Source: a plasmid. From it: DNA of 64,000 bases. Positions 12,001-18,000 of the stretch are shown here, piece by piece. The stretch lies in assembly GCF_056746865.1 (NCBI RefSeq), contig NZ_JBWKMP010000002.1. One strand, 5' to 3'. Made by a program: the position numbers. Position 1 is the stretch's first letter, and each line of letters starts with the position of its first letter.

Positions 12001-15000
12001 CAGTTGATAGTGCTTCTTCACGTGTGCTATCCATTTTTCTTTCGAAGTCAGCAGCTGTGATGCCCGAGGAACCAAACAATTTTTCGATATTTTTAGATTG
12101 TCCTCGCATGACTTCCGGCTTATTTTCCACAGCTTTCAGAGCCGCTTCATTAAGGCTGGCGTTTTCCTGAATTTCATCACGTCTTCTAATTATATCGTTG
12201 ACAGCATCAGAGTTATTACTTTGGGCCCTTATAGCCTGGGTATGGTCTATAACTGCTTGAACACTATCCGCATTCATACCGGGCACGTAACCACGGTTTG
12301 TTTGCCTGCTCAGGTCCTGGTTTTTTTTGAGTGCTTCAGCTTGCGCAATGTACTTCTGCACATCTGGTGAATTTAGCGTAGCATCAAGGCTAAGAGCCCC
12401 ATCTGGCTGCTGTGCACCTTTAGCCTGAGCGCCAAGCCCTTTTGCTTGCTGAGCGATTAGGTCAGCATCATGTTGATACTCAGTGCTTGCATTTGTATTA
12501 CTTAAAACTGCACATAACGCAAGTCCAGGAAGTATTGGTAAATATTTTTTATTTACATTAAAAGATCGCATATGTTTTCCCAATTACTGAATTCAGCTTT
12601 ACTGTTCCCCAAAAACGGGAATCCCATGAGTGATCGGTTTGCCCAATTAGGAAAACTTCGCCTTCAGGAATTATCAATTCTTTTTCAATCAAAATGGACG
12701 GAATACTGTATTTCTTTGAAATACGACGTGCATTAGCTTCAAAAAATTTGTCCCCGTTATAAACCCCATCCATTGTTACTTTGAGTTTGTCACCGCCCAC
12801 ACCGGCAACAATTTTTATGACTCGTTCATTTTCTGGGATAAAACGAACCGATTTCGGCATGTTGAAAGCTATGAGTTCACCAGTTTTAATAGTTTTATCC
12901 GAATGATCAATCATATAAAAATCAGCAGGCAGGCACCCATTCAATAAACCGTATCCAAATGTATAACGGGTGAAAAAGACACACATAACGAGAATCAGCA
13001 ATAAAATATTAATGGGGACATACCAATCCAGTATAAGCAGCCCTCTCTTTTTAGGTATGTAGTCGCTCATATTTTTCTCACTAGCACTGAAGAATATTTT
13101 TACTAAGTAGATACACCTCTATCCAAGTAACTATTATCCATGTTTTTCAACGCTCGGAAGTCTGCAAACTAACCTAATATTAACCTATAAGGATGTTAAT
13201 TTCTCAGCATGTAGACGCAGCCTTGTTAGCGGCCATGAAAGATACCTTTGTAGCAAAGTTACTTTCCGGTATTAATTTTTCAAAGGTCCAATTGTTGGGC
13301 ATAAAAAAGCCGGGACAAAATGTCCCGGCTTTATATTTAAAAATTTATTACTCACTGCTTGGTATTGATACAGTGTTTTCAGACTTACTTGCCTCTTCAG
13401 CCGGTCCGAAAACTGTCACGTGCTGCGTTGCAAAGTCTCCACTATCATCATAAGCAATTACTTTTATGTCCTGCTTACCACGGTTAAGGTTTTTAGAAAG
13501 TGTAGCCGTACTACCGAAAACGTTCCTTAATTCGCCGTTGATGAACCATTCATATCTAACCATTTTTCCATCAGTATCATCACATTTATTGGTAAAGCTC
13601 CAGCTTAGGTTGGTTTCCGTGTAGCTCAATGTACAATTAGGCACTGCGTTTTTAACGACATCAAACTCAACAGATGCTGAACCTCTCTGTCCAAGTTTAC
13701 TAACAACATCAATTGTGATCTCGTATTTCTTTTCTTTTAAACCCGAAATCAGTTGAGCCCAATAATTTTTGCCGCTGGGTATTACCTCACCGTTCACCTT
13801 GTATGTGACCGTATCTATCGAGTCCGCCGAATGAGATAGCTTGATGTTTGACCTTAAGGTTACATCGAGTGGAGCTCTCATATATTTGTTAGAGAACTTG
13901 GGTGTCATCTCAACGTTCATTGGCGTTTGTTCATCGACAACAAAGGTATTTTCGATACGCTGTTCATTGTTGCGGTTATCTTTGAAAACAACCATCAATG
14001 TATATTTGCCAGGATTTTCAATTGTAAATTCTTTGGTGTCACCTTCATCTTTAGTGATTACCAGATTCTCTTTGTCGTAAATCCATTCTCGGGAATAAGT
14101 AACACCAGGATAGTCTCCATCCTTAATACCGCTCAACGCAACGCGTAGGGTGGTCGGTGCCATGTCGTATTTAAGTTTGGAGCTTATTTTCATTTCGGGG
14201 AATTTATAAACCCACGATTTGACAGAAACTCTACGGGTAGAAACCGTATTCTCCTTATTGTCCGCTAACCATGCACTGTATTCAAAAGCAGCATATCCCT
14301 GTTTATCCAACATTTGCTCAGTAAGGGTAACAGACAGTGTAGAGCCTTTAAATGTCTGGCCATCCGGTGTTTTCCATTCTTCAACTACGTTATTACCATT
14401 CTGGTACTTACTGTTAGGGTTCGTGAACTTACCTTCCAAAGTAACTTTTTGACCAACCTCTACCTTAGAAACCCCCGTTACCGAGACAGAAAGGCGCTTG
14501 GGTTTTGCGGCTGCCAACCGAGCAGACGTTTCCTTCCATGAAGACTCCTCTGCCAGTTCATCGAAATCAAGGTAACGCATCCGGGCATAAATCGTAGACG
14601 GTAGGGTATCAGCTGAAGCCACAGTGTAAGTTGTATCTCCCTGCACCCAGTTGACTTTATCCTCTGACCAGAGAACCTCAGCGGTGCCTGCTGGTATAGG
14701 CTCATCGTTATCAAGCAGGGTTACAGGTACATCTGAGCCCTGAAGAATGTCTGTCACATCTATACTGAGCTTAGGCTGCTTGTAGGTAACTACCGTTAAG
14801 GCATCTGTGTAGGAAACCTTAGATGTGAATTTATTGGTCATTTTTGCCCTATAAAGCCACTTTCCTACTTCTGTCTTTTTGATACTTACACTTCTCTTTC
14901 CGGTCATGTCGGAAAGCATATTCCAGGTTTGACCATTATCAGAGGACTGCTGCCATTCGGTGGGGGCAAGTGCGTCAGAGTTAGCAGTACTGGCAGATTT

Positions 15001-18000
15001 GAAGCTTACCAGAGTACTAAGTGGGATCCTTCCGATAATAAGGCTTTTCGACAGGTTACCCTCCAGTTCCTCACCTTTATAGATTCGAATGCCTACAGCA
15101 CTGGTCTCACGTTTCATTTCAAAATCAGAGAATGGCGATCTGACCTTAGCCACACCAACCAGACGCATATTACCCAGATCCATATTTTCAATTTTAATCT
15201 TGGTTTCGACAATGCCCGCATCATTGACCGGCAATGCTTCAGTCAGCGCAGTTCTTTCGTATGTAGTTTTATAACGGCCTGTTTCTGGATCTTTGCCGTA
15301 TACACTTTTTTGCGAGTATATCGTGACGTCCCATTCTCCCATTGTTTTACGGTCAAATGCACTTTTACGTGTGGAGTTGTTATAACGCCCCACTGTTACC
15401 TTTAAGGGCACTTCAAGAGATGTGGCTGTTTTTCTGTCATCCACTTCCATCGATGCTCGAATATTGAAATCAGGCACCGTATATACGTTGAGTGTGTCTG
15501 TAGTTCTTAATTCTGGATCCTTTGAGTATTCTACAGCTATGTCAAAGACGTTCTTTGTCCACAATGGTGCAGCAGCAACCTTAACCCTTTGTACAAAGGT
15601 CGTTGCATCGTTGTTTGAGGAACGATTTTTAAATGACGTTTTGACAGCCTCAGAGCCGTTTTGAGAGACGATCATCGTAACGTCAGCTGGTACCACCTTC
15701 GCTAATATTCGAGCGGCCTCCCCCCCGGTCGTATAAGCCAGAGCAGTGTTCGGATTGATGCCAGCTATGACTTTATTCTTTTTGTAAGAGATGATCGGGT
15801 TGTATGGTAATTGTGTGGTCAGAGTACGGCGATTCCTTGCGGATACCGCTTTAGAGCCCTTCCCGTTAATCATATAGACTTGATAGTCGAGCAGATTCTC
15901 ACCTGTTTTATTAAAGAATCCAGTTAGACCCGGGGTACGTCCTTTAAAATAGAACTCCAACCCATCAGGGACATTGTTCCACTGAGGGTAGCATGCTGTA
16001 ACATCTGATTTTTCCCCATACCAGGCGAGGTAAGCATTCGCATTTTCCTCTGTGGTAAACAGAGTGCATTTATCACCAGCTGTTTGACTAAGCAGGTCCG
16101 TATACTGACGTACACGCGAGTAAAGAGTTACGTTTTTTTCCAGATTCTTGAGAGTGAATCCAGTAGGTTGATAAGTGAAAACGGTACTGAAATTAACGTT
16201 TTTTCCATAAAGGTTTTCAGCCACCACAGTAATCTCGTGATCCGAATTAACTGCTAAATCGTCTCCAACCGGCAGGTAGTAAATACCTCTATAATTTGTA
16301 GGTGTTAACGAAACTACTTTGTTGTCTATTGTTACTGATTTTATGTCAGCAACCCCAGCCTGCCCCTGGAAAGCTGCAACGATAATCTCGTTCAGGAAGT
16401 ATACGGGTGCTCGTTTAGTTAATACCTGCCCATCTTTGAGAACCATAAGCGTTGGGTTATCAGACAGCATCAGTTTGCTTTCAGGCTCAGTGTACGTAGA
16501 AGAGTTTTTGCTCGTATTTTCTACTGTAAAAGTCGCTGCGTAGGACCCGTTTATAAGATCCGTTAAGTCGAAGATATAGAGGTACTCATCACCGACTTTT
16601 TGAGGTCCACTTACCGGCTGTAAAGTTCTACGTAAAGGGGTTGCCCAGGACTGTTTGAAATCAATCTCAGTGCCATCATCTAAAGTCACTTTAGTCGTCG
16701 GTTTAAACACGCCATCCGGAGTCATAGTGAGCGACATAGCTGTTGGGAGCCACCATTCACCTTCTGTTTCTTGCTGGGGTACCTTAACGGCCACAGCAAC
16801 GGTTTTGGCTCCGGTATAGATGTCCTGGCCACCTACTTTGATTGTTTTAGCCTCATCGGTAAAATTCCAAAGTGTATGGTCTACTACAGGAGGCCGATAA
16901 TCCCAGTTAACAACAAGCTTTTTGGATTCAGGAGGTGCGAAATAATTATTCTTAGAGTTTGCTGTAATTGTGATATCACGTGAACCCAAAAGTTCATCTG
17001 TATCACTGGCCTTAATGCTTCCAACTTCAATGGTACAGGAAGTTCCGCCAATAGGAACTTCACAGGCGGAGCCTGAACCTATTGAGATGTATTGAATATA
17101 ATTGCGGGGCTCAACAGAAACAGCGATATCTTTGATCGCTTCATCCTTTAAATACGATTTGAAAGAAAAGCCGTCATAGACTAATCCGTTCAGGGATGAT
17201 TTAAGACCGGTGATAGTAGGTTTTACCGGTGCCACACTTTTGATTGAATATTCACCTTTTACTATTTCAACTTTTTTCCGTTCAGAACCAGAGAAGTAAG
17301 AAATCTTGTAAGGTAGTTTTAAATCACCGGTGGTGTTGGGAACGCCTGAAAGAGTGAAACCGTTAGAAGTAAATCCCAAGGTATTGGGTAACCACTCAAA
17401 AAAACAAACGAGGTTATCAACAGAGGAAGTCGCTCGATCATCAACCGTTACATTACAGGCTGTGCCTGCACCTGAGGCAGTGATAGTGTTAGAATTAACG
17501 TATGCAACAAAGTCGCCCGGCCCCGGGTCAAAGGATACGGCTGGCAAATCAGCCTGTAGCTTTCCTGAAATCATAATCGCTTCGGCATAGACCGCTTTAA
17601 TCGGAGCAATTAAAGAAAACAACAGGGCTAAACCTAAACCTGATTTTCTCATGACGAATACCTGTTTTTCTGAGCAAAATTAAACTCACTTTACGATGAA
17701 AAACAGAAATATCCGTTCGTATAACATTTAAAAAAACCTGTATTTTTCCATGTATTCCGTATGTTAATACGCTATTTTGAATTCTTGGCTTCAGATAAGC
17801 GAAGCGCGGTAATTATAGACTCGGAGCTTACCCAAGGCGTTTTTTGAGCAAGATATCCAAGTATGTAGAGGCCAATTTTAACGCAGTCCATTTGTGAGAC
17901 GGGGACCATGTGCATGAAGGGTTTTAAGCCGTCTTTATCGACTGGAACTATCCCTGCTGATAACAACAAACCGCCCCTCTCGTTTGGGGTAACGCTTATA

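Follow-up and report, generated by a model that had tools for sequence, protein, structure and literature searches.

Evidence that a giant Ig-like protein encoded in the transfer operon of an IncHI2 plasmid is the orthologue of R27 RSP

Results

The rsp locus and its surroundings

The window analyzed here is a stretch of 64,000 nucleotides from a plasmid (RefSeq assembly GCF_056746865.1, contig NZ_JBWKMP010000002.1), for which annotation and typing report repHI2, a MOBH relaxase and an MPF_F system. An earlier note had singled out a 1434-aa open reading frame at 13348-17652, and both the ORF listing and the translation confirm it as real, on the minus strand and with an ATG start; an open frame of 1434 codons has a probability of about 1e-30 by chance. 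The names of the neighbouring genes are those given in the annotation of a plasmid 99.7% identical to the window. The relevant features are as follows.

6653-9841, minus: trhN, a pilus-assembly / mating-pair gene downstream of rsp (annotation)
9860-10915, minus: trhU, likewise
11060-12571, minus: trhW, likewise; the trhW-trhU-trhN block as a whole occupies 6653-12571, minus
12558-13070, minus: trhF (= trhP), S26/TraF-type signal peptidase, directly downstream of rsp (annotation)
13071-13299, minus: rsp-trhF intergenic region, with a putative trhF (trhP) promoter by analogy with R27
13300-13332, minus: intrinsic terminator of rsp (12-bp GC-rich stem, 3-nt loop, T-run)
13348-17652, minus: rsp coding sequence, the IncHI2 allele of R27 ORF R0009 / RSP (ORF list, translation)
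16162-16587, minus: Big_3_3 domain (bacterial Ig-like, group 3), residues 356-497 (Pfam PF13750)
17584-17652, minus: predicted Sec signal peptide MRKSGLGLALLFSLIAPIKAVYA, codons 1-23, read from the sequence, with probable cleavage before EAIMISG
17653-17771, minus: htdK-rsp intergenic region, with the ribosome-binding site of rsp and a putative internal promoter (analogy with R27)
17772-18326, minus: htdK, an AN operon proximal gene upstream of rsp (annotation)
18335-18760, minus: htdF, likewise
18750-19202, minus: htdA, likewise; the htdA-htdF-htdK block as a whole occupies 17772-19202, minus
51730-54186, plus: RSP2-family paralogue, 818 aa, with DUF4165, Big_3_2 and Big_3_3 (Pfam) and a signal peptide
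58378-60798, minus: second RSP2-family paralogue, 806 aa, with DUF4165, Big_3_2 and Big_3_3 (Pfam) and a signal peptide

By that annotation rsp does lie upstream of the peptidase, TraW, TraU and TraN homologues, as had been proposed, with trhP of the earlier note corresponding to trhF in NCBI naming. The layout of the AN operon has been described previously (PMC7366339), and lacZ fusions in R27 detected promoter activity both 5' of R0009 and 5' of trhP (PMC7366339). The Tra2 region that holds rsp also encodes a DsbC-like HtdT, and a TraC-family gene, trhC, is annotated within the window by way of the near-identical plasmid.

The claim that rsp has its own terminator is upheld by sequence reading, an inverted-repeat search and folding; a simple terminator scan missed the element. 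It starts 16 nt past the stop codon, and its hairpin (13306-13332; AAAGCCGGGACA-ttt-TGTCCCGGCTTT, then TTTAT) has a perfect 12-bp stem with a folding energy of -20.4 kcal/mol (z = -5.6). R27 keeps this hairpin, and KP-p1, an IncHI1B-type plasmid, carries a different one at the equivalent position; the conserved block ACATGGATAATAG in the rsp-trhF intergenic region of the window recurs in both R27 and KP-p1.

Identity with R27 RSP

The giant protein aligns full length and collinearly with the product of rsp in R27 (NC_002305, 11659-15957), with 1192/1428 identities (83%) and 93% positives by BLASTP, without a single gap, and at the nucleotide level the two genes are 74% identical. The order htdA-htdF-htdK-rsp-trhF-trhW-trhU-trhN is common to the window and R27, and an identical protein (WP_001232107.1) bears the RefSeq name "IncHI-type conjugal transfer protein RSP". 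Identical rsp DNA occurs in hundreds of IncHI2 plasmids, where it is annotated as rsp, and the R27 study found an R0009 allele in all 102 of its IncHI2 plasmids, at 74-87% nucleotide identity (PMC6764697). These comparisons support the assignment of the giant ORF as the rsp orthologue of IncHI2 plasmids, rsp being part of the AN transfer operon in Tra2. The homology suspected by the earlier note is thereby substantiated, and its alternative of an unexplained giant surface protein falls away. As the IncHI2 version of a published and database-named protein, the identity of RSP is already known. Its description as belonging to a little-studied class was fair in part, and is to be set against a curated name and no fewer than three papers devoted to RSP since 2019. 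Because a scan of RSP against the NCBIfam HMM library returned no family at E <= 0.01, the RefSeq name does not originate from an HMM of the library scanned.

Relative to the R27 allele, dN is 0.10 and indels are absent; no dN/dS ratio is given, since the IncHI1 and IncHI2 alleles are saturated at synonymous sites. As judged from these two alleles, rsp is shown to be under purifying selection. Its product (83%) is conserved on par with the core Tra2 proteins TrhF, TrhW and TrhN (78%, 80% and 88% identical to their R27 counterparts; TrhU, 96%), and far better than HtdK and HtdF (52% and 51%); HtdA is 82.5% identical. Both a chromosomal adhesin and a pseudogene were considered for the ORF and rejected on the grounds of synteny, intact frame and conservation.

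Features of the predicted protein

The computed mass is 158.6 kDa for the precursor and 156.2 kDa for the mature protein, in keeping with the approximately 155 kDa first estimated. The N-terminus (MRKSGLGLALLFSLIAPIKAVYA, then EA) combines a basic n-region with a hydrophobic core, which is the protein's highest Kyte-Doolittle stretch, and V-x-A at -3/-1. Signal-peptide-like N-termini of this sort are found in 130 of 152 long homologues, and a mature start of the form (A/S)-x-x-(I/V)-(S/T)-G is conserved across the family, such that the signal peptide noticed originally is well borne out. In a 51-sequence family alignment that extends down to 20% identity, each of the eight cysteines (66/83, 197/206, 529/554, 1340/1357) is invariant or almost invariant, and from the structural models together with this alignment the cysteines probably form four conserved disulfide pairs.

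T, V and S are abundant in the protein, and AlphaFold2 models (pLDDT 88) contain 55% strand and 3.5% helix by DSSP, which compares with published values for R27 RSP of 61% beta, 1% alpha and 155 kDa. The models thus agree with the beta-rich character first read from composition, and predict a chain that is beta nearly throughout and comprises some 13-15 Ig-like sandwich domains. The impression of a repeat-like protein holds at the level of the fold and fails at the level of sequence, as self-BLASTP detected no internal repeats. A Pfam search of both halves of RSP gave a single weak match to Big_3_3 (PF13750; E = 0.0027), otherwise noise (Y_Y_Y, hemicentin GBD). The matched segment, residues 356-497, is modelled by AlphaFold2 as a beta-sandwich, is the counterpart of the Big 3 domain placed at residues 331-470 in R27 RSP (PMC6764697), and matches Big_3_3 at E <= 0.001 in 22 of the 51 family members; the presence of a Big-type domain is supported. 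A phmmer search of RSP against PDB sequences gave a best E of 0.26, and as such no significant match to any solved structure or adhesin.

RSP2-family paralogues in the window

In R27, RSP works jointly with RSP2 (R0055), which is like RSP in being secreted and Ig-like and in its export route and targets, and which interacts with it; unlike RSP, it belongs to a separate family of about 800 aa with DUF4165, Big_3_2 and Big_3_3. IncHI2 plasmids have been stated in the literature to be without rsp2. Contrary to that statement, by sequence comparison two full-length RSP2-family genes are present in the window: the 818-aa product is 35% identical to R27 RSP2 over its full length (E = 2e-122) and 82% identical to the IS30-truncated 719-aa Ig-like protein of R27, and the 806-aa product is 32% identical to RSP2, again full length (E = 5e-107). 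These paralogues may serve as partners of RSP in IncHI2 plasmids, and their distance from RSP2 counts against the R27-derived reading of how RSP works. When RSP itself was used as a tblastn query, each IncHI2 record among the matches listed was hit in one place, which is rsp itself.

Discussion

It is reasonable to postulate that RSP would be synthesized with a cleavable signal peptide of the Sec type and cross the inner membrane, that it would fold in the periplasm into a rod of ~156 kDa with ~13-15 Ig-like domains and four conserved disulfide pairs, and that it would then reach the cell exterior by a step dependent on the plasmid's own T4SS and pilus-assembly machinery, which from the R27 counterpart would include TrhC, TrhH and the pilin TrhA. 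Outside the cell, by analogy with R27, RSP may decorate the H-pilus and flagella, with less motility and a stabler contact between donor and recipient as the expected outcome, and this contact would favour efficient plasmid transfer at temperatures up to 30 C, above all in liquid. We place the probability of this reading, meaning rsp orthology, Sec/T4SS export, appendage binding and a role in conjugation taken together, at roughly 0.9.

The dependence of export on the T4SS, the binding targets and the need for RSP in conjugation are carried over from experiments with R27. There, deletion of rsp left no detectable transfer in liquid and was complemented (PMC6764697), RSP was needed for mating at 25 C (PMC6764697, PMC8730810), its export required trhC and it bound flagella (PMC6764697), and export also required trhH and trhA, with binding to H-pili (PMC8730810). 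Furthermore, nanobodies against RSP lower transfer (bioRxiv 10.1101/2023.12.12.571265). A search of the accessible literature found no experiments on the IncHI2 allele of rsp. The IncHI2 plasmid pMG101-A, which carries ISEc27 inside rsp, is non-transmissible (PMC8417528); this link is correlative, and a polar effect on trhFWUN could account for it.

One competing view is that RSP is a structural component of the H-pilus, a tip or shaft adhesin that is co-assembled with it, and that the RSP seen in supernatants and on flagella reflects shedding or stickiness. Export in R27 requires the pilin TrhA and the assembly factor TrhH in addition to the ATPase, RSP co-precipitates TrhH and labels pili, and family-wide the gene is tightly linked to those for the S26 peptidase, TraW and TraU. 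However, the text of the H-pilus cryo-EM paper (PMC11722321) mentions neither RSP nor Ig-like proteins, and RSP is plentiful in cell-free supernatant as well as on flagella. Nothing in the present analysis separates this view from the main reading; on balance we regard a structural role as unlikely, yet as the most serious of the competitors.

A quite improbable alternative is that RSP is a one-step T4SS substrate, recruited in the cytoplasm and passed through the conjugation channel, with an N-terminal hydrophobic segment that is not a Sec signal. As points against the main reading, the R27 authors did not discuss a signal peptide, detected no RSP in the outer-membrane fraction, and read export as T4SS-mediated; the SSPred prediction that they cite agrees with the one-step view, and in trhC, trhH and trhA mutants of R27 export is lost and RSP accumulates inside the cells. 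Against this, RSP carries a canonical n-h-c signal peptide with V-x-A that is conserved family-wide and would not be expected in a one-step substrate, and its four conserved cysteine pairs suggest periplasmic oxidative folding. A folded rod of 13-15 Ig domains would also be unlikely cargo for the coupling-protein route, and a periplasmic pool of RSP has been detected in R27 (PMC6764697), with a periplasmic intermediate mentioned by the R27 authors. Because both the signal peptide and the four cysteine pairs are conserved throughout the family, we infer that Sec acts first in a two-step export of RSP; the DsbC-like HtdT of Tra2 and the periplasmic pool in R27 favour this route as well.

The weakest contender, that RSP is a fibrillar adhesin directed at host or other surfaces, or a biofilm factor, which happens to be encoded in the transfer region and has an indirect effect on conjugation, has in its favour the long string of Ig-like domains, a published Phyre2 likeness of the C-terminus of R27 RSP to SiiE and SraP, and the surface exposure and antigenicity of RSP in infected mice, but is very improbable given a place immediately before the S26 peptidase and TraW genes that persists in unrelated replicons at identities as low as 26%, the complemented loss of transfer upon deletion in R27, an N-terminal Sec signal peptide without sequence repeats, and the lack of a significant sequence match to solved adhesins.

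IncHI2 plasmids rank among the major carriers of resistance genes, mcr-1 included, and RSP, which is surface-exposed and promotes conjugation, has previously been put forward as a target for vaccines and nanobodies. The existing reagents were raised against the IncHI1 allele, and because the two alleles are 83% identical, cross-reactivity with the IncHI2 protein is plausible and not guaranteed. For the window itself the practical gain is a correct annotation. The signal peptide, the cysteine pairs, the linkage to the S26 peptidase and TraW, and the RSP2-like paralogues could sharpen the mechanistic model, and are increments on a known system.

Comparison with known systems

That F-type systems have no such gene, as was claimed at the outset, is true of the F plasmid itself, whose annotation has no large gene between traC, trbI, traW, traU and traN, and whose tra region gives a best tblastn E of 0.48 with RSP. 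SiiE of Salmonella and SraP of S. aureus resemble RSP as elongated chains of Ig-like beta-sandwiches. Giant adhesins of the SiiE type use type 1 secretion with a C-terminal signal. RSP differs from these proteins in that it has a predicted Sec signal peptide in place of a type 1 secretion signal and is encoded inside a conjugation operon, and it lacks the tandem repeats of one Ig-domain type that mark repeat-type giant adhesins.

Clustered at 50% identity, the RSP family comprises at least 451 clusters. Relatives that share 51%, 28% and 26% identity likewise have their genes directly before those for an S26 peptidase and TraW, with TraU and TraN next where the contig reaches, and the homologous records examined that were typed are MOBH / MPF_F. 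A further likeness is to the 1828-aa Ig-like protein of IncC plasmids (such as ALG87338.1 in pKAZ3), which at 24.5% identity is homologous to residues 487-1405 of RSP (E between 8e-64 and 2e-69) and in IncA/C (IncC) is required for conjugation at 25 C (PMC8730810). Its gene belongs to a MOBH / MPF_F transfer region, with dsbC, traC, the S26 peptidase gene, traW, traU and traN nearby. The protein is longer than RSP, with a different N-terminal part, and its gene sits between traA and dsbC-traC, not directly before the peptidase gene. We tentatively entertain, at slightly worse than even odds, the broader proposal that the RSP family is not confined to IncHI but is a widespread MOBH-linked accessory of F-like T4SSs, with export via Sec and stabilising disulfides, together with a pilus-decorating RSP/RSP2 complex general to IncHI plasmids.

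R27 RSP and the protein described here share their length (1432 and 1434 aa), signal peptide, eight cysteines and Big_3 region, and their genes share operon position and a downstream terminator. They differ in 17% of residues, with the lowest identity at residues 121-180 and 1081-1140 (68-72%), and in their backbone, which is IncHI1 for R27 and IncHI2 for the window.

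Identity and conservation of the rsp gene

The giant gene of the transfer operon, whose product the earlier note had likened to RSP of the IncHI1 plasmid R27, is a gene already known and already named. Its product is 83% identical and 93% similar to the R27 rsp product over 1428 residues with 0 gaps, the order htdA-htdF-htdK-rsp-trhF-trhW-trhU-trhN is common to the window plasmid and R27, and RefSeq uses the name rsp, so that the suspected homology is borne out. Full-length similarity, locus, plasmid backbone, a Big_3 domain and a giant, beta-rich size were all found as in RSP. 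The features concerned are as follows.

13348-17652, (-): rsp, 1434 codons from an ATG start
13306-13332: rsp terminator hairpin, a perfect 12-bp GC-rich stem followed by a T-run, 16 nt past the stop codon
downstream of rsp, (-), by annotation: trhF (S26/TraF-type peptidase; trhP in the R27 papers), trhW, trhU, trhN
upstream of rsp, by annotation: htdK, htdF, htdA

The computed chance probability of an open frame of this length is ~1e-30, and the initial description of a long reading frame with its own terminator, directly ahead of peptidase, TraW, TraU and TraN homologues, holds in each of these respects. The terminator, which a simple consensus terminator scan did not report, was located by sequence reading, inverted-repeat search and folding, and has a folding energy of -20.4 kcal/mol (z = -5.6 vs shuffles). 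The hairpin is also kept in R27, in agreement with the several transcripts described for the R27 AN operon (the transfer operon that holds these genes) and its internal promoters upstream of R0009, the R27 rsp, and of trhP (PMC7366339).

A megablast search with window positions 13000-18000 had matches in 1127 plasmid records, with identity of at least 99% in 670, nearly all from Escherichia, Salmonella and Enterobacter, and the annotation carried by matching records is 'rsp: IncHI-type conjugal transfer protein RSP'. The near-identical plasmid pSTM6-275, typed as IncHI2A, MOBH and MPF_F, is 99.7-99.98% identical across the entire window length. At the nucleotide level rsp is 74% identical to the R27 allele, which falls inside the 74-87% published for IncHI2 alleles of a gene present in 102/102 IncHI2 plasmids then available (Huttener et al., PMC6764697). 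Synonymous sites are saturated between the two alleles but non-synonymous divergence is 0.10, so that RSP is under strong purifying selection. Judged by identity to the R27 counterparts, RSP is as conserved as the core proteins of the Tra2 transfer region (TrhF 78%, TrhW 80%, TrhN 88%), and far more so than HtdK and HtdF (~51%).

Protein architecture

RSP has a computed mass of 158.6 kDa as precursor and 156.2 kDa when mature, and Thr, Val and Ser are abundant in its composition. Residues 1-23 (MRKSGLGLALLFSLIAPIKAVYA) read as a textbook Sec signal peptide, as the earlier note had proposed, with a basic n-region, a hydrophobic stretch that is the most hydrophobic of the whole protein, and V-x-A ahead of the predicted cleavage site.

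Profile searches recovered little: RSP had no match in an NCBIfam HMM search, the one Pfam hit, to Big_3_3, was weak (E = 0.0027; residues 356-497), with no significant hit among the last 812 residues of the chain, and a sequence search against solved structures found no match. AlphaFold2 models built from 50 homologues, with identity down to 20%, gave a pLDDT of 88.6 for residues 24-784 and 87.7 for residues 702-1434, and the merged DSSP assignment contains 55% strand, 3.5% helix and 104 strands. As modelled, the chain would correspond to about 13-15 consecutive beta-sandwich modules. The predicted fold agrees with what has been published for R27 RSP, namely one Big 3 domain, 61% beta structure and a C-terminus that is SiiE-like by Phyre2 (PMC6764697), and the beta-sandwich picture now spans the whole chain. 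Of the 'beta-rich, repeat-like' composition first noted, the beta-rich part stands and the repeat-like part stands for the fold, but not for the sequence, as self-BLASTP found no internal sequence repeats. On the same ground a repeat-type giant adhesin was rejected for RSP.

Function and export

In R27, deletion of rsp abolishes detectable liquid transfer at 25 C and complementation restores it; the protein is located in the periplasm and inner membrane, in the cytoplasm and in supernatant cleared of cells, its release depends on trhC, and it lowers motility and coats flagella (PMC6764697). TrhH and TrhA, the pilin, are likewise needed for release; both TrhH and RSP2 (the second secreted Ig-like protein of R27) co-precipitate with RSP, and pili are labelled by RSP (PMC8730810). 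Anti-RSP nanobodies lower plasmid transfer (bioRxiv 10.1101/2023.12.12.571265). Among IncHI2 plasmids, one observation gives support: pMG101-A, which carries ISEc27 in rsp, is non-transmissible, with polar effects not excluded (PMC8417528). In two further IncHI2 records (NZ_MW025959.1 and CP101353.1) the match to 13000-18000 is split in two by an IS3-family transposase, which recalls pMG101-A.

The R27 RSP papers do not discuss the signal peptide or cysteine pairs. Signal-peptide-like N-termini occur in 130 of 152 long RSP homologues, and the cysteines form four closely spaced pairs (66/83, 197/206, 529/554 and 1340/1357), all eight showing little or no variation in 51 homologues with identity down to 20%. 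The IncHI Tra2 region with rsp also carries htdT, a DsbC-like gene, and in an IncC plasmid dsbC is directly downstream of the RSP homologue. The conserved Sec signal peptide, the cysteine pairs, htdT and the periplasmic pool seen in R27 together favour a two-step route, in which RSP would be exported by Sec and undergo oxidative folding, and its release would come afterwards, with a need for the T4SS or pilus. RSP may be co-assembled with the pilus or may attach to it once released. One-step T4SS translocation out of the cytoplasm is argued against by the family-wide signal peptide, the four cysteine pairs and the R27 periplasmic pool, and RSP does not have the look of a one-step substrate.

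RSP2-family genes and other features of the window

The most useful by-product of the analysis is a pair of full-length RSP2-family genes that flank repHI2.

51730-54186, (+): RSP2-family gene, 818 aa; DUF4165 + Big_3_2 + Big_3_3, secreted Ig-like
58378-60798, (-): RSP2-family gene, 806 aa; DUF4165 + Big_3_2 + Big_3_3, secreted Ig-like

Over their full length the 818-aa protein is 35% identical to R27 RSP2 (E = 2e-122) and the 806-aa protein 32% (E = 5e-107). IncHI2 plasmids have been stated to be without rsp2 (PMC8730810), and our literature search found no paper contradicting this absence. The 719-aa 'Ig-like domain-containing protein' of R27 (NC_002305, 48925-51084) is a copy of the 818-aa protein cut short by IS30 (82% identity over 705 aa), which implies that R27 once had a second RSP2-family gene, intact in IncHI2. 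The 818-aa and 806-aa proteins are candidate partners of RSP.

Three genes appear as two ORFs each relative to pSTM6-275: repHI2 (55294-56380; 2-bp deletion at 55795), the trhK/TraK secretin gene (37281-38556; 1-2-bp indel at 37785) and a DUF4942 gene (48252-49943; 1-2-bp indels at 49298 and 49482). None of the eight best-matching plasmid records listed (99.8% identity each) has the repHI2 deletion, and the three splits may reflect either errors in sequencing or frameshifts private to the plasmid. Between parA and trhC, a non-coding gap holds a tandem array (27061-29603) in which a 249-bp unit recurs about 10.4 times with 68% matches; the copy content of the array differs from that of pSTM6-275.

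Family and genomic contexts

Among representatives of sequences clustered at 50% identity, an exhaustive phmmer search with RSP residues 235-1434 found 451 with E <= 1e-3, including 244 with E <= 1e-30. The family comprises collinear proteins of about 1400 aa and longer ones of 1700-3700 aa that have the C-terminal ~900 residues in common with RSP. The F plasmid itself holds no RSP counterpart, as the earlier note had claimed for F-type systems. In all five contexts examined, the RSP-family gene lies inside or beside F-like T4SS genes. Two relatives of 26-28% identity, one on a metagenome contig and one in a genome assembly, are directly upstream of Peptidase_S26 and TrbC/TraW genes, and at the longer of these loci TraU and TraN come next. 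In KP-p1 (IncHI1B type) the relative is 51% identical and the gene order is that of IncHI2. The IncC relative, a protein of 1828 aa, belongs to the longer class, with 24.5% identity over RSP residues 487-1405 (E ~1e-64 to 1e-69), and its gene is placed between traA and dsbC-traC-S26 peptidase-traW-traU-traN.
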